DNA of 64,000 bases from Escherichia coli (GTDB taxonomy: Bacteria; Pseudomonadota; Gammaproteobacteria; Enterobacterales; Enterobacteriaceae). Position 1 is the stretch's first letter, and each line of letters begins with the position of its first letter. Of the stretch, positions 1,677 to 33,336 are shown one piece after another. A model generated the notes under the pieces. The model was not told the DNA's origin, searched no databases, and saw nothing but the letters and a program-made list of their open reading frames with translations. Location: assembly GCF_013122565.1 (NCBI RefSeq), contig NZ_CP053258.1, one strand, 5' to 3'. The translations under genes were made by a program, and so were the position numbers.

Positions 1677-3215
1677 ATGGCTTTTGCCTCATTAATTGAA
1701 CGCCAGCGCATTCGCCTGCTGCTGGCGTTATTATTCGGTGCCTGCGGAACGCTGGCCTTCTCTCCTTACGATGTCTGGCCTGCGGCGATTATTTCGCTGA
1801 TGGGGCTTCAGGCGTTGACCTTTAACCGTCGTCCACTCCAGTCTGCCGCTATTGGCTTTTGCTGGGGATTTGGCCTCTTTGGCAGCGGTATTAACTGGGT
1901 CTATGTCAGCATCGCGACCTTTGGCGGAATGCCTGGCCCGGTTAACATCTTCCTGGTGGTGCTGCTGGCGGCGTATTTGTCGCTGTATACCGGACTGTTT
2001 GCTGGCGTGCTGTCGCGCCTGTGGCCGAAAACCACCTGGCTGCGCGTGGCGATTGCCGCCCCTGCTCTCTGGCAAGTGACCGAGTTTCTGCGCGGTTGGG
2101 TACTGACCGGCTTCCCGTGGTTACAGTTCGGCTATAGCCAGATTGATGGCCCGTTAAAAGGGCTGGCACCGATAATGGGCGTGGAAGCCATTAACTTCCT
2201 GCTGATGATGGTTAGTGGCCTGCTGGCACTGGCGTTGGTCAAACGCAACTGGCGTCCGCTGGTGGTGGCCGTCGTGCTGTTTGCCCTACCCTTCCCGCTG
2301 CGTTACATCCAATGGTTTACCCCGCAACCGGAGAAAACCATTCAGGTTTCGATGGTTCAGGGCGATATTCCGCAATCGCTGAAATGGGACGAAGGCCAGC
2401 TTCTTAATACGCTGAAGATTTACTACAACGCAACGGCACCGCTGATGGGCAAATCATCGTTGATTATCTGGCCGGAGTCGGCGATAACCGATCTGGAAAT
2501 TAATCAGCAACCGTTCCTCAAAGCACTGGACGGTGAGTTGCGCGAGAAAGGGAGCTCGCTGGTAACCGGGATTGTTGACGCGCGTCTCAATAAGCAGAAC
2601 CGCTACGATACCTACAACACCATCATCACGCTGGGTAAAGGTGCACCGTACAGCTACGAATCAGCCGATCGCTATAACAAAAACCATCTGGTGCCGTTTG
2701 GCGAGTTTGTCCCGCTCGAGTCGATTCTGCGTCCGTTAGCACCGTTCTTTGATCTGCCGATGTCGTCGTTCAGCCGTGGGCCATATATCCAGCCGCCGCT
2801 GTCGGCAAATGGTATTGAGCTTACTGCGGCTATTTGCTATGAGATCATTCTTGGCGAGCAAGTGCGTGATAACTTCCGCCCGGATACCGACTACCTGCTG
2901 ACTATCTCCAATGATGCATGGTTTGGTAAGTCTATTGGTCCATGGCAGCACTTCCAGATGGCGCGTATGCGTGCGTTGGAGCTGGCGCGCCCATTGCTGC
3001 GTAGTACCAACAACGGCATTACGGCGGTGATTGGCCCGCAGGGTGAGATTCAGGCGATGATCCCGCAGTTCACCCGCGAGGTGCTAACCACTAATGTGAC
3101 ACCGACCACCGGACTCACACCGTATGCACGTACCGGCAACTGGCCGCTGTGGGTGCTGACGGTGCTATTTGGTTTTGCCGCTGTGTTGATGAGTCTGCGT
3201 CAACGACGTAAATAA
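1677..3215 (+). CDS. lnt: Apolipoprotein N-acyltransferase, 512 aa
   Basis: ORF 1677..3215; N-terminal TM segments; C-terminal CN-hydrolase domain with E (WPESA), K ([10 protein letters not shown]), C (AAICYEI) triad. Confidence 0.95.
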
Positions 3216-3314
3216 TCCCTTCTTATCGTGCCGGAATACATCCCGTATTTCGGCACGCTCACCGGATGCGGCATCAGTGCATTATCCGGATAACAATATT
3301 CTCCTATCCAACTT

Positions 3315-3330
3315 TGGCACATCTATTGCT
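3315..3330 (+). promoter_or_regulatory. Candidate sigma-54 (-24/-12) promoter element TGGCAC-N5-TTGCT upstream of gltI
   Basis: Exact consensus-spaced GG/GC element read at 3315-3330, about 280 nt upstream of gltI ATG. Confidence 0.4.
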
Positions 3331-3611
3331 TTGTTATACAAGGCAAAGCTTGAACCAGCATCAGTACAACCCGGTTGCACCACAGCAATCCACCGGTAGC
3401 ACCAAAAGAGTGCATTTTAAGAATTTTGCTTCGGAATGGTGCGGCGCACCTCGCAAAAACAAACAATAAAACATCAATATCTTTACATTTAGCCAAACTA
3501 AATGTTACCTAACAGGCACAACACTGCACAATAAAGTTGCAGACGATAACAACACAAACACTCACAACGGGTATCCATGCGTTCTTAACGCAGAAGATAA
3601 AGGAGTTGGAT

Positions 3612-4520
3612 ATGCAATTACGTAAACCTGCCACAGCAATCCTGGCCCTGGCGCTTTCCGCAGGACTGGCACAGGCAGATGACGCCGCCCCGGTAGCGGG
3701 CAGTACGCTGGACAAAATCGCCAAAAACGGCGTGATTGTCGTCGGTCACCGTGAATCTTCAGTACCTTTCTCTTATTACGACAATCAGCAAAAAGTGGTG
3801 GGTTACTCGCAGGATTACTCCAACGCCATTGTTGAAGCAGTGAAAAAGAAACTCAACAAACCGGACTTGCAGGTAAAACTGATTCCGATTACCTCACAAA
3901 ACCGTATTCCGCTGCTGCAAAACGGCACTTTTGATTTTGAATGTGGTTCTACCACCAACAACGTCGAACGCCAAAAACAGGCGGCTTTCTCTGACACTAT
4001 TTTCGTGGTCGGTACGCGCCTGTTGACCAAAAAGGGTGGTGATATCAAAGATTTTGCCGATCTGAAAGGCAAAGCCGTAGTCGTTACTTCCGGCACTACC
4101 TCTGAAGTTTTGCTCAACAAACTGAATGAAGAGCAAAAAATGAATATGCGCATCATCAGCGCCAAAGATCACGGAGACTCTTTCCGTACCCTGGAAAGTG
4201 GTCGTGCTGTTGCCTTTATGATGGATGACGCTCTGCTGGCTGGTGAACGTGCGAAAGCGAAGAAACCAGACAACTGGGATATCGTCGGCAAGCCGCAGTC
4301 TCAGGAAGCCTACGGTTGTATGTTGCGTAAAGACGATCCGCAGTTCAAAAAGCTGATGGATGACACCATCGCGCAGGTGCAGACCTCCGGTGAAGCGGAA
4401 AAATGGTTTGATAAATGGTTCAAAAATCCAATTCCGCCGAAAAACCTGAACATGAATTTCGAACTGTCAGACGAAATGAAAGCACTGTTCAAAGAACCGA
4501 ATGACAAGGCACTGAACTAA
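3612..4520 (+). CDS. gltI: Glutamate/aspartate ABC transporter periplasmic binding protein, 302 aa
   Basis: Internal ATG at 3612 preceded by AGGAG (3601-3605); signal peptide MQLRKPATAILALALSAGLAQA; longer ORF from 3537 rejected. Confidence 0.9.
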   Translation: MQLRKPATAILALALSAGLAQADDAAPVAGSTLDKIAKNGVIVVGHRESSVPFSYYDNQQKVVGYSQDYSNAIVEAVKKKLNKPDLQVKLIPITSQNRIPLLQNGTFDFECGSTTNNVERQKQAAFSDTIFVVGTRLLTKKGGDIKDFADLKGKAVVVTSGTTSEVLLNKLNEEQKMNMRIISAKDHGDSFRTLESGRAVAFMMDDALLAGERAKAKKPDNWDIVGKPQSQEAYGCMLRKDDPQFKKLMDDTIAQVQTSGEAEKWFDKWFKNPIPPKNLNMNFELSDEMKALFKEPNDKALN

Positions 4521-4676
4521 TTACAAGAACCAGGGGCGGAAATTCCAGCCCTCTCAATTGTTACGTAGCACGGACAGACTATACGCCTGATGGTCGTTCC
4601 CCATCGGGCCTGAAAACCGCAATACGCTGGGTAACAATCTTCGAGGGTAGCAGTTAACGCTGCTACCCTCTTTTTT
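4514..4676 (+). ncRNA. sroC: SroC-like sRNA derived from gltI-gltJ spacer (3' end at intrinsic terminator)
   Basis: Position between gltI and gltJ matches known SroC locus; 3' end defined by hairpin plus T-tract; 5' end approximate. Confidence 0.5.
4643..4676 (+). terminator. Intrinsic terminator/attenuator between gltI and gltJ
   Basis: GAGGGTAGCAG-TTAAC-GCTGCTACCCTC perfect stem followed by TTTTTT, 14 nt before gltJ ATG. Confidence 0.7.
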
Positions 4677-4689
4677 CTGGAGTAGATTT

Positions 4690-5430
4690 ATGTCTATAGA
4701 CTGGAACTGGGGTATTTTTTTACAACAAGCCCCGTTCGGCAACACCACCTATCTTGGTTGGATCTGGAGTGGTTTTCAGGTGACGATCGCTTTGTCGATC
4801 TGCGCCTGGATTATCGCTTTCCTCGTCGGTTCATTTTTCGGCATTTTACGTACCGTTCCAAACCGTTTTCTCTCCGGTCTGGGTACGTTGTATGTCGAAC
4901 TGTTCCGCAACGTGCCGTTGATTGTGCAATTCTTTACCTGGTATCTGGTGATCCCGGAGCTGCTGCCGGAGAAAATCGGCATGTGGTTTAAGGCCGAGCT
5001 GGATCCCAATATTCAGTTTTTCCTTTCATCCATGCTCTGCCTTGGGCTGTTTACCGCCGCCCGTGTTTGCGAACAGGTACGCGCCGCTATTCAGTCGCTG
5101 CCGCGTGGGCAGAAGAATGCCGCGCTGGCGATGGGTCTGACGCTACCGCAGGCTTACCGCTACGTACTGCTGCCTAATGCTTATCGCGTTATCGTCCCGC
5201 CGATGACCTCAGAGATGATGAACCTGGTGAAAAACTCCGCCATCGCCTCGACCATCGGTCTGGTAGATATGGCAGCGCAGGCAGGTAAATTGCTCGACTA
5301 CTCGGCTCACGCTTGGGAGTCGTTTACCGCCATTACGCTGGCGTATGTATTGATTAACGCTTTTATCATGCTGGTGATGACGCTGGTTGAACGTAAAGTT
5401 CGCCTGCCCGGCAACATGGGGGGCAAATAA
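4690..5430 (+). CDS. gltJ: Glutamate/aspartate ABC transporter permease, 246 aa
   Basis: ORF 4690..5430; polytopic membrane protein; position after gltI. Confidence 0.9.
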
Positions 5431-6104
5431 TGTACGAGTTTGACTGGAGTTCCATTGTTCCTTCCCTGCCATATCTGCTCGACGGGCTGGTGATCACCCT
5501 GAAAATCACCGTCACGGCAGTCGTGATTGGTATTTTGTGGGGCACCATGCTGGCGGTGATGCGCTTGTCCAGCTTTGCGCCCGTAGCATGGTTTGCCAAA
5601 GCCTACGTTAACGTATTCCGCTCGATTCCTTTAGTTATGGTTTTGCTGTGGTTTTACCTGATCGTGCCGGGTTTTCTGCAAAACGTGCTGGGATTATCAC
5701 CAAAAAATGATATCCGTTTAATTTCGGCGATGGTGGCGTTTTCGATGTTTGAAGCGGCCTACTATTCAGAGATTATCCGTGCCGGTATTCAAAGTATTTC
5801 TCGTGGTCAATCGAGCGCCGCGCTGGCGTTGGGGATGACTCACTGGCAGTCGATGAAACTGATTATTCTGCCGCAGGCGTTCCGCGCGATGGTGCCGCTG
5901 CTGCTCACTCAGGGCATCGTACTGTTCCAGGATACCTCACTGGTGTATGTGTTATCTCTGGCCGATTTCTTCCGTACCGCCTCAACCATTGGTGAGCGTG
6001 ATGGTACGCAGGTTGAGATGATCCTGTTTGCCGGATTTGTTTATTTCGTTATTAGCCTTAGCGCGTCGTTGTTGGTCAGCTACTTGAAAAGAAGGACAGC
6101 ATAA
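5430..6104 (+). CDS. gltK: Glutamate/aspartate ABC transporter permease, 224 aa
   Basis: ORF 5430..6104; start overlaps gltJ stop; permease-like hydrophobic sequence. Confidence 0.9.
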
Positions 6105-6829
6105 TGATTACCCTGAAAAATGTTTCAAAATGGTATGGTCACTTTCAGGTGCTGACCGACTGCTCAACCGAAGTGAAAAAAGGCGAAGTGGTGGTGGTTT
6201 GTGGCCCGTCTGGTTCCGGCAAATCAACGCTGATTAAAACCGTCAACGGCCTCGAACCGGTGCAGCAAGGTGAAATCACCGTCGATGGTATCGTGGTTAA
6301 CGACAAGAAAACCGATCTGGCAAAGCTGCGTTCCCGCGTCGGGATGGTGTTCCAGCATTTTGAGTTGTTCCCCCATTTGTCGATTATTGAAAACCTGACT
6401 CTGGCGCAGGTTAAAGTGCTTAAACGCGATAAAGCACCCGCTCGTGAAAAAGCATTGAAATTGCTGGAGCGCGTGGGACTTTCCGCACATGCCAATAAAT
6501 TTCCGGCACAGCTTTCCGGCGGTCAGCAGCAGCGTGTGGCGATCGCTCGCGCATTATGTATGGATCCTATTGCCATGCTGTTCGACGAACCGACATCGGC
6601 GCTGGATCCGGAGATGATCAACGAAGTGCTGGACGTAATGGTCGAACTGGCGAATGAAGGAATGACCATGATGGTGGTGACCCACGAAATGGGCTTTGCC
6701 CGTAAAGTGGCGAATCGGGTGATCTTTATGGATGAGGGTAAAATTGTCGAAGACTCGCCGAAAGATGCGTTCTTCGATGATCCGAAATCGGACCGCGCAA
6801 AAGACTTCCTCGCGAAAATCCTGCATTAA
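6104..6829 (+). CDS. gltL: Glutamate/aspartate ABC transporter ATP-binding protein, 241 aa
   Basis: Walker [10 protein letters not shown] and ABC signature LSGGQQQR in translation; start overlaps gltK stop. Confidence 0.95.
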
Positions 6830-26167: not shown

Positions 26168-27256
26168 ATGCGTAAGCAGTGGCTCGGGATCTGCATCGCG
26201 GCAGGAATGCTCGCGGCATGTACAAGCGATGATGGTCAGCAACAGACGGTAAGTGTACCGCAGCCTGCGGTATGTAACGGCCCCATAGTTGAAATTAGCG
26301 GGGCGGACCCGCGTTTCGAACCACTGAACGCGACGGCAAATCAGGATTACCAGCGCGACGGTAAAAGCTACAAAATCGTGCAGGATCCGTCTCGATTTAG
26401 CCAGGCGGGACTGGCGGCAATCTATGATGCCGAACCCGGCAGTAACCTGACGGCCTCTGGCGAAGCTTTCGATCCGACACAGCTGACGGCGGCCCATCCA
26501 ACGCTTCCGATCCCCAGCTACGCCAGAATCACTAACCTGGCTAACGGGCGAATGATCGTGGTGCGCATTAATGATCGCGGTCCTTACGGCAACGACCGCG
26601 TTATTTCGCTTTCTCGCGCAGCAGCTGACCGTCTTAACACATCAAACAACACCAAAGTTCGTATCGATCCGATTATTGTCGCCCAGGATGGTTCGCTTTC
26701 TGGTCCTGGTATGGCTTGTACCACAGTCGCCAAACAGACTTACGCCCTGCCTGCACCTCCCGATTTAAGCGGCGGCGCAGGAACAAGTTCAGTGTCTGGC
26801 CCGCAGGGTGACATTCTTCCGGTCAGTAATTCGACGCTAAAAAGCGAAGATCCGACCGGCGCGCCGGTAACCAGCAGCGGTTTCCTCGGCGCACCAACGA
26901 CCTTAGCGCCTGGTGTTCTGGAAGGCAGCGAACCACCGCCTGCTCCACAGCCCGTTGTTACAGCTCCGTCGACAACGCCTGCAACCTCGCCTGCAATGGT
27001 GACACCGCAAGCCGCCTCGCAAAGCGCCAGCGGCAACTTTATGGTGCAAGTCGGGGCCGTTAGCGATCAGGCTCGTGCGCAACAGTACCAACAGCAACTG
27101 GGACAGAAGTTCGGCGTCCCCGGTCGCGTAACTCAAAATGGCGCGGTCTGGCGGATCCAGCTTGGCCCATTCGCCAGCAAAGCCGAAGCCAGTACCTTGC
27201 AGCAACGTTTGCAAACCGAAGCCCAATTACAGTCATTTATTACCACCGCGCAGTAG
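26168..27256 (+). CDS. rlpA: Septal lytic transglycosylase-like lipoprotein RlpA, 362 aa
   Basis: Lipobox MLAACTS; Pro/Ala/Thr-rich linker; C-terminal SPOR-like domain. Confidence 0.9.
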   Translation: MRKQWLGICIAAGMLAACTSDDGQQQTVSVPQPAVCNGPIVEISGADPRFEPLNATANQDYQRDGKSYKIVQDPSRFSQAGLAAIYDAEPGSNLTASGEAFDPTQLTAAHPTLPIPSYARITNLANGRMIVVRINDRGPYGNDRVISLSRAAADRLNTSNNTKVRIDPIIVAQDGSLSGPGMACTTVAKQTYALPAPPDLSGGAGTSSVSGPQGDILPVSNSTLKSEDPTGAPVTSSGFLGAPTTLAPGVLEGSEPPPAPQPVVTAPSTTPATSPAMVTPQAASQSASGNFMVQVGAVSDQARAQQYQQQLGQKFGVPGRVTQNGAVWRIQLGPFASKAEASTLQQRLQTEAQLQSFITTAQ

Positions 27257-32541: not shown

Positions 32542-33336
32542 TCATAATAATTGCGGCGGCGCAAAGCGACGGTTGTTTAAGACGGGCAGTTGCGCGCGCA
32601 CCTGACGCACACGTTCGGGCGTCACTTCCGCCATAATGAGTGCAGGCATTTCTGACGCTGCCGCAATGGTGACGCCAAAGGGATCTATAATCCGGCTTTG
32701 CCCGATATTTTTGTTCCCGCACTCCCCCGCCGCCACCATATAACAGGTGGTATCCAGCGCACGAGCGGCAAGCAACGTTGACCAGTGATGCTCTTTGAGC
32801 GGCCCGCGAACCCAGGCGGCAGGAAGTACCAGGATTTCAGCTCCCTGTAATGCCTGTGCCAGCGCCAGCTCTGGAAAGCGTAAGTCATAACAGGTCATCA
32901 GACCGACCTTCATCCCTTCCACCTCCAGTAATGGAGCTATTTCATTACCAGCATCAACATGGCGTGATTCCTGAATGGCAAATGCATCATAGAGATGAAG
33001 TTTGGCATAACGGGCAACGATGTTTCCTGCCTGTAGCGCCACCAGCATATTCCATGCGCGCCCCGGCGTTGAAGGAACATGAATCGTCAGAATTGTCGTC
33101 ATCATGTTACGTTTACTTTCTCGCCGTAAACGTCCGAGGAATTCGCCTTCCAGCAGCTGTGCTGATTTAACCGATAGATCTGCATCATGATCATCGCGCG
33201 CCAGCAATGCTTCCGGCAGGACAAACAGCGATACGTCGTTTTCCGCCGCCTGCGCCATCAACGAGGCACAAATCTCAGCGTTCTTTTCCCACACAGATGT
33301 AACAGCAAACTGTCCTGCAGCAACCAACATTGCCAC
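32542..33336 (-). CDS. ybeM: C-N hydrolase (nitrilase superfamily) amidase YbeM, 264 aa, reading frame intact
   Basis: Uninterrupted ORF; E (LPE), K (YAKLHLYD), C ([10 protein letters not shown]) catalytic-triad contexts present. Confidence 0.8.

Follow-up and report, generated by a model that had tools for sequence, protein, structure and literature searches.

We conclude that the sequence TGGCAC-ATCTA-TTGCT (TGGCACATCTATTGCT), which lies on the + strand at positions 3315-3330 of the window (the whole 64,000-nucleotide stretch of Escherichia coli DNA that was analysed), is very probably the NtrC-activated, sigma-54-dependent promoter of the gltI-sroC-gltJKL operon, and the distal one of the operon's two promoters. 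The sigma-54/NtrC reading of the element is supported because published data independently back each of its parts: the sigma-54 promoter, its orientation and its link to the Ntr system. It is an already documented promoter, not a new one. Only the placement of the conserved NtrC dyads, which are found downstream of the promoter, may add something to the accessible literature. The element and the genes around it are the following.

1677-3215, + strand: lnt, apolipoprotein N-acyltransferase, the upstream gene (open reading frame; the homologous region of E. coli PT62 is annotated lnt)
3227-3257, + strand: inverted repeat after lnt with 13-nt arms and a 5-nt loop, without a T-tract, inside a REP-like stretch
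3315-3330, + strand: sigma-54 core promoter consisting of the -24 block TGGCAC, the 5-nt spacer ATCTA and the -12 block TTGCT (sequence, invariance, identity with a K-12 ChIP-seq motif)
3612-4520, + strand: gltI, glutamate/aspartate periplasmic binding protein (open reading frame and homology; ATG at 3612 rather than 3613)
4516-4678, + strand: SroC small RNA, the 3' end of the gltI transcript, at the gltI-gltJ junction (Rfam RF00369, 168 bits; annotated in MG1655)
4690-6829, + strand: gltJ, gltK and gltL, permeases and ATPase (open reading frames; annotation of the homologous region)

The names lnt and gltIJKL were adopted from an annotated E. coli chromosome (PT62), to which the region is 98% identical over 6.6 kb. 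Elsewhere the window matches E. coli genomes at 99.4-99.6% identity, so that it comes from an E. coli strain. In the alignment the inverted repeat that follows lnt is not conserved outside Escherichia. A weak, sub-threshold Rfam match of the naRNA4/REP type was obtained at 3230-3291 on the - strand.

The first-pass annotation had described a consensus-spaced sigma-54 element in the lnt-gltI spacer, oriented toward gltIJKL and followed by a long leader, and this observation is confirmed in every detail. The GG and GC doublets stand at the canonical sigma-54 spacing at 3315-3330, and neither strand of the 64-kb window contains another exact match to TGGCAC-N5-TTGCW. The open reading frame coordinates and strands bear out that the element is intergenic (a spacer of 396 bp separates the end of lnt at 3215 from the gltI ATG at 3612) and that it is on the strand of gltI. 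In dinucleotide-preserving shuffles of the window an exact match occurred with a mean of 0.04 and was present in 4 of 100 shuffles. When one mismatch was permitted, the window contained four sites against 3.2 expected, thus the one-mismatch count is at about the level of chance and only the exact site is remarkable.

Two of the imperfect matches deserve a separate mention. A one-mismatch sigma-54-like motif, TGGCGCGCCCATTGCT, is located within the lnt coding region (2983-2998), and many genera have similar sequences at the corresponding place, approximately -586 to -599 from gltI; this recurrence is probably due to coding constraint. Another one-mismatch motif, at 32846-32861 on the - strand, falls in a stretch annotated as the deaminated-glutathione amidase gene and is of chance frequency.

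The element is conserved throughout the family. A scan with the GltI protein, taking one genome per species, yielded 80 Enterobacteriaceae loci, 81 together with the window, and TGGCA[CT]-N5-TTGC[AT] was present on the gltI strand in all 81, between -287 and -365 from the gltI ATG. The -24 block is TGGCAC in 76 and the -12 block TTGCT in 77 of these loci, and the 5-nt spacer occurs in 29 versions. In an alignment of 22 genera (A1) the TGGCA and TTGCT columns were invariant, and no conservation was seen upstream of -24: the sequence from the lnt stop to the -24 block could not be aligned, and in some genera this region measures no more than about 50 bp. A working -24/-12 promoter would be expected to leave just such a footprint, in which the two blocks are fixed, the spacer is free and the sequence upstream is unconstrained. 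It is true that a 16-mer with five free positions can arise by chance, as it did in the 4 of 100 shuffles of the window, and the motif might then be a match without function. We give this explanation practically no weight, it is refuted by the family-wide conservation around a variable spacer and by the sigma-54 ChIP signal on the identical sequence.

This ChIP signal was obtained in E. coli K-12. In the sigma-54 ChIP-seq table of Bonocora 2015 (PMC4591121) the motif of peak OS04, TTGGCACATCTATTGCT, is a 17-mer identical to window positions 3314-3330; it is given with FAT 21 and a PSSM score of 11.7, the highest values among the table rows examined, and is flagged as a promoter predicted by EcoCyc. 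The same table names insH3 as the gene downstream of OS04, because in K-12 an IS5 element is inserted here. In Salmonella LT2 the ChIP-chip study of Samuels 2013 located TGGCACGTCTATTGCTTT upstream of gltI with a PSSM score of 22.1, and a microarray showed gltIJKL 1.8-fold up in the presence of a promiscuous activator (PMC3844500). The sigma-54 promoter set of RegulonDB also includes gltI, according to a 2011 paper that used the set. Binding of NtrC is documented by a 55-fold ChIP-seq peak assigned to gltIJKL (Brown 2014, PMC4066584) and by gSELEX peaks in the insH-lnt spacer, which were obtained with the RpoN holoenzyme, with NtrC alone and with both together (Shimada 2021, PMC8743547). As to expression, rpoN deletions of E. 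coli CFT073 and EDL933 lowered ybeJ (= gltI) at least 2-fold, and Switzer 2022 called it a known sigma-54-dependent promoter (PMC9017345). Miyakoshi 2022 assigned both a sigma-70 and a sigma-54 promoter to gltIJKL, and found that lack of nitrogen induced SroC, a processing product of the gltI mRNA, in Salmonella and in E. coli O157 and O111, the induction being only marginal in K-12, where IS5 lies between the promoter and gltI and the nitrogen induction is blunted (PMC9731577). Raised gltIJKL under nitrogen-fixing conditions has been published as well.

The earlier proposal that a sigma-54 promoter ties glutamate/aspartate uptake to nitrogen limitation is therefore upheld by published sigma-54 ChIP, by NtrC ChIP-seq and gSELEX, by the drop in rpoN deletions and by the induction of SroC. 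The remark that gltIJKL had been reported as Ntr-responsive was also right, as judged from the published NtrC peak, the nitrogen induction of SroC and the presence of gltI in the RegulonDB sigma-54 set.

Binding of the sigma-54 holoenzyme to the motif could in principle go together with little productive transcription, in which case sigma-70 would drive gltIJKL and the nitrogen response would arise elsewhere, for instance post-transcriptionally via GcvB and SroC. Many sigma-54 ChIP sites are described as transcriptionally silent in Bonocora 2015 (PMC4591121), the activation in Salmonella was only 1.8-fold (PMC3844500), Miyakoshi 2015 wrote of a 'single gltIJKL promoter' in Salmonella under the growth conditions used, and we found no mapped rpoN-dependent 5' end near 3341 in the accessible literature. 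This explanation is hard to reconcile with the at least 2-fold decrease of ybeJ in rpoN deletions of two E. coli pathotypes (PMC9017345), with the fact that the nitrogen induction of SroC is only marginal specifically where IS5 parts the upstream region from gltI (PMC9731577), and with the joint retention of the promoter and the NtrC dyads across the family, and we consider it improbable. The weak induction in Salmonella and the 'single gltIJKL promoter' of Miyakoshi 2015, together with the assignment of the enhancer, which is putative, are among the points that count against our preferred explanation, an NtrC-activated sigma-54 promoter.

The start of the sigma-54 transcript was predicted by adding 26 to the first position of the motif, which makes the C of the GC element -12. 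The predicted start and two further features of the leader are listed here.

3341-3342, + strand: predicted sigma-54 transcription start
3548-3568, + strand: C/A-rich stretch of the gltI 5' UTR, likely the GcvB target and a translation enhancer (sequence; CAACA...TCAC conserved; approximate coordinates)
3578-3592, + strand: small hairpin just 5' of the gltI Shine-Dalgarno sequence (RNAalifold: 6 pairs, of which 4 show one or more compensatory changes)

As a control, the same rule was applied to the glnAp2 promoter of E. coli, where its two best NtrC-like sites came to lie exactly at -140 and -108, which we take to be the positions given in the literature. From a start at about 3341 the leader would extend for about 271 nt to the ATG at 3612, in good agreement with the figure of about 270 nt estimated in the first-pass annotation. 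GcvB is known to act on a C/A-rich site in the gltI 5' UTR (PMC4474525). A structured leader RNA or attenuator was considered and rejected: a 285-nt leader did not fold better than its shuffled versions (z = -1.7), no terminator-like site was detected in 3150-3700, and no Rfam family was found in the leader, Rfam identifying only SroC at 4516-4678.

The search for NtrC sites used the consensus TGCACC-W4-TGGTGCA, taken from the literature, and led to the following candidates.

3376-3392: NtrC-like site 1, of which only the left half TGCACC (3376-3381) is conserved, centre at about +43 (GCAC invariant in the 22-genus alignment)
3398-3414: NtrC-like site 2, AGCACCAAAAGAGTGCA, a GCAC-N7-GTGC dyad, centre at about +65 (near-invariant arms and a variable centre in 22 genera)
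3427-3443: NtrC-like site 3, TGCTTCGGAATGGTGCG, centre at about +94 (TGC...GGTGCGG invariant in the 22-genus alignment)
3525-3541: TGCACAATAAAGTTGCA, ambiguous, readable as a short hairpin of the 5' UTR or as a fourth NtrC-like site (differs from the NtrC consensus at 2 positions; only partly conserved)

It had been suggested that NtrC-type enhancer half-sites should be sought upstream of the element. None was found there, and all candidate sites in the window and in the 81 loci are downstream. The dyad GCAC-N7-GTGC was absent upstream of the motif in the 81 loci within 450 bp before gltI, and in the window a scan reaching 314 bp upstream of the motif gave no NtrC site with four or fewer mismatches. 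On the downstream side, in contrast, GCNC-N7-GTGC is present in 81 of 81 loci. Measured from start to start, its distance from the motif is 83-85 bp in 68 loci and 96-119 bp in 12; in the one further locus an additional match at 63 bp precedes the one at 85 bp. Site 1 is 60-62 bp after the motif start in most of the 81 loci, and the pattern of site 3, TGC-N8-GGTGC, is present in 78. NtrC-type dyads are thus found within looping distance of the core promoter, on its downstream side.

In the 64-kb window GCAC-N7-GTGC occurs once, at 3398-3414, and three positions have three or fewer mismatches to the NtrC consensus, two of them inside the 396-bp lnt-gltI spacer. Sites 1 and 3 are weak matches in the window, with 6 and 5 mismatches of 17, respectively, counted by eye. 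The sequence at 3525-3541, if taken as a hairpin, would have a stem of three pairs without compensatory changes. Elsewhere in the window, an NtrC-like 17-mer with two mismatches lies at 27032-27048 in a 701-bp stretch annotated rlpA/dacA, and is of chance frequency. As a control, the same scan was applied to MG1655, where it returned -140 and -108 for glnAp2, -108, -121 and -134 for glnHp2, and only +65 and +192 for gltI. No conserved IHF site of the form WATCAA-N4-TTR was seen between the promoter and the dyads when the 22-genus alignment was inspected by eye.

The published NtrC data are of unequal use in placing these sites. The ChIP-seq bin at gltI corresponds approximately to window 3319-3399, its centre being 38 bp downstream of the motif (PMC4066584). 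At glnK, glnH and rutA, too, no more than about 20 bp separate the bin from the sigma-54 motif, so the 38-bp offset at gltI cannot locate the NtrC sites, and we rejected the bin as an enhancer locator, its resolution being too low. The gSELEX results show that NtrC alone binds somewhere in the 297-bp spacer remnant of K-12 (PMC8743547), and the only NtrC-like sequences in this remnant are the three sites. The most economical reading of the sequence is that the enhancer would lie inside the transcribed leader, from where NtrC would loop back to the closed complex. That the three conserved dyads at about +43, +65 and +94 form a natural downstream NtrC enhancer, and that such an enhancer has not been described at this locus, is a possibility that we put forward tentatively and would not yet count on; the literature that we searched contained nothing relevant on downstream NtrC enhancers.

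Between the dyads and gltI there is a further conserved block, which brings in the second promoter of the operon.

3482-3511, + strand: candidate sigma-70 promoter with a -35 box TTTACA (3482-3487), TG (3503-3504) and a weak -10 box (3506-3511), proposed on the basis of conservation

The block CTTTACA...CTAAATG.TA (3481-3511) is invariant or nearly so in the 22-genus alignment and looks like a proximal sigma-70 promoter with a TG-extended weak -10 box; a simple consensus scan did not call the candidate at 3482-3511. In the same alignment a conserved A-rich stretch precedes this block, and the Shine-Dalgarno sequence is the last conserved block. A possible second sigma-54 promoter, AGGCAC-AACAC-TGCA at 3514-3529, would set the dyads at canonical upstream distances. 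It was rejected, as the GC falls one base short of the required spacing and other genera do not retain the GG; moreover, the examined table rows of Bonocora 2015 show no sigma-54 peak beside gltI in K-12, and gltI is nowhere named in the main text (PMC4591121).

The proximity of the sigma-70 candidate leaves another role for the dyads to be considered. Instead of serving as a sigma-54 enhancer, they could let NtrC work on the sigma-70 promoter, which follows at a distance of about 40-100 bp, or form a roadblock, the true enhancer being elsewhere or activation occurring from solution. Enhancers are usually 80-150 bp upstream of the promoter (PMC4987338), a sigma-70 start near 3518 would put the dyads at about -83 to -134, and the resolution of the published ChIP is too coarse to place the NtrC sites. 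On the other hand, neither the 450 bp before gltI in the 81 loci nor the 314 bp upstream of the motif in the window contain an upstream dyad, the region upstream of -24 is unconserved and in some genera offers only about 50 bp, and motif and dyad keep a constant distance of 83-85 bp in 68 of the 81 loci. To our knowledge NtrC is not an activator of sigma-70 promoters, which also counts against an action of the dyads on the sigma-70 promoter. We regard this alternative as unlikely, and continue with the reading in which the dyads would serve the sigma-54 promoter.

The conserved sigma-70 block is also the place where K-12 departs from the window.

3509-3512: CTAA, IS5 target, occupied in K-12 MG1655 and intact in the window, inside the putative sigma-70 -10 box

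In MG1655 the element IS5D is 103 bp upstream of the gltI ATG, and the blast alignment of the window with MG1655 breaks at 3508/3512. The target is located downstream of the sigma-54 promoter and the dyads, between them and gltI. The intact CTAA identifies the window as a non-K-12 E. coli, which thus presents the intact, IS5-free arrangement that is absent from K-12.

Two alleles of the promoter region account for most complete E. coli genomes. The exact 33-mer around the motif of the window (TGGCACATCTATTGCT; allele A, TGGCACATCTA) is present in 2179 of 5426 complete genomes, and the exact 33-mer of a second allele, TGGCATGTAAGTTGCT (allele B, TGGCATGTAAG), in 3160 of the 5426, about 58%; at most 87 genomes carry the exact 33-mer of neither. 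Allele B is strongly diverged from lnt to about 3366, homology resuming at about 3367, just before NtrC site 1, and in the two allele-B genomes examined the spacer between lnt and gltI has gained a 1878-nt gene for a rhomboid-family protease, divergent from gltI. The strains compared here included E. coli Ec-RL2-1X and MCJCHV-1. In both alleles the -24 and -12 blocks are in register. In E. coli Ec-RL2-1X (L083:649-664) the element reads TTGCATGTAAGTTGCT, with TTGCAT for TGGCAT, i.e. the GG at -24 is changed to TG, which, to judge from the sequence, should cripple the sigma-54 promoter in this strain.

It is instructive to compare the element with systems that are already known. The sigma-54 promoter of gltI (ybeJ) in K-12 and LT2, known from RegulonDB/EcoCyc and ChIP, is the same element: TTGGCACATCTATTGCT is identical in the K-12 peak OS04 as given in the table, and the Salmonella LT2 site, TGGCACGTCTATTGCT, differs by one base from the 17-mer of the window and has the same position, orientation and NtrC association. 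Unlike K-12, whose data sets assign the site to insH3, the window has no IS5, and its promoter is therefore still joined to gltI.

The glnAp2 promoter of the E. coli glnALG operon resembles the gltI promoter in having a -24/-12 core, NtrC dyads clustered 60-120 bp away from it, a sigma-70 partner and induction by nitrogen limitation. The arrangement of the two is a mirror image, the dyads being upstream at glnA (-140 and -108) and downstream at gltI (about +43, +65 and +94), and the sigma-70 promoter being distal at glnA and proximal at gltI. The glnHp2 promoter of the glutamine ABC transporter operon glnHPQ belongs to the same regulon, is likewise controlled by NtrC and sigma-54, and appears in the same ChIP and rpoN-deletion data sets as gltI. 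Its NtrC sites are upstream (-108, -121 and -134), unlike those of gltI, and its leader is short, with a motif-to-gene distance of 44 bp in the table of Bonocora 2015 (PMC4591121), compared with about 271 nt at gltI.

The closest parallels to the arrangement that we propose come from other sources. Downstream enhancers of sigma-54 promoters are known from NtrC sites moved downstream of glnAp2 and from the ftr elements of Caulobacter flagellar genes. In these precedents an activator bound 3' of the start contacts the closed complex by DNA looping, as it may do at gltI by analogy; they are engineered, or involve another activator and organism, and in this respect they differ from gltI.

Taken together, the operon would be switched on as follows. 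Sigma-54 RNA polymerase, whose binding is documented by published ChIP, would occupy TGGCAC-N5-TTGCT as a closed complex. Upon nitrogen limitation phosphorylated NtrC would bind in the spacer, in line with the published ChIP-seq and gSELEX, and, as the sequence suggests, most probably to the dyads at +43, +65 and +94, from where it would loop back and, by ATP hydrolysis, drive the formation of the open complex. Transcription would start near 3341 and proceed through the NtrC sites and the conserved sigma-70-type promoter at 3482-3511, and the leader of about 271 nt would share its C/A-rich GcvB target with the shorter sigma-70 transcript. Scarce nitrogen would in this way result in more GltIJKL transporter and more SroC. 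In K-12, the IS5 at CTAA 3509-3512 splits both promoters from gltI and largely uncouples the operon from nitrogen control. It is possible that an NtrC oligomer bound in the transcribed region could hinder elongation.

The promoter, the sigma factor, the activator and the physiology, i.e. scavenging of glutamate and aspartate when nitrogen is scarce and feeding of SroC into the GcvB network, are already in the literature and in RegulonDB. If the downstream enhancer is real, sigma-54 polymerase would have to read past its own activator and across the sigma-70 promoter, and the downstream NtrC sites, if confirmed and indeed unpublished, would provide a clean natural example of an enhancer inside the transcribed region.
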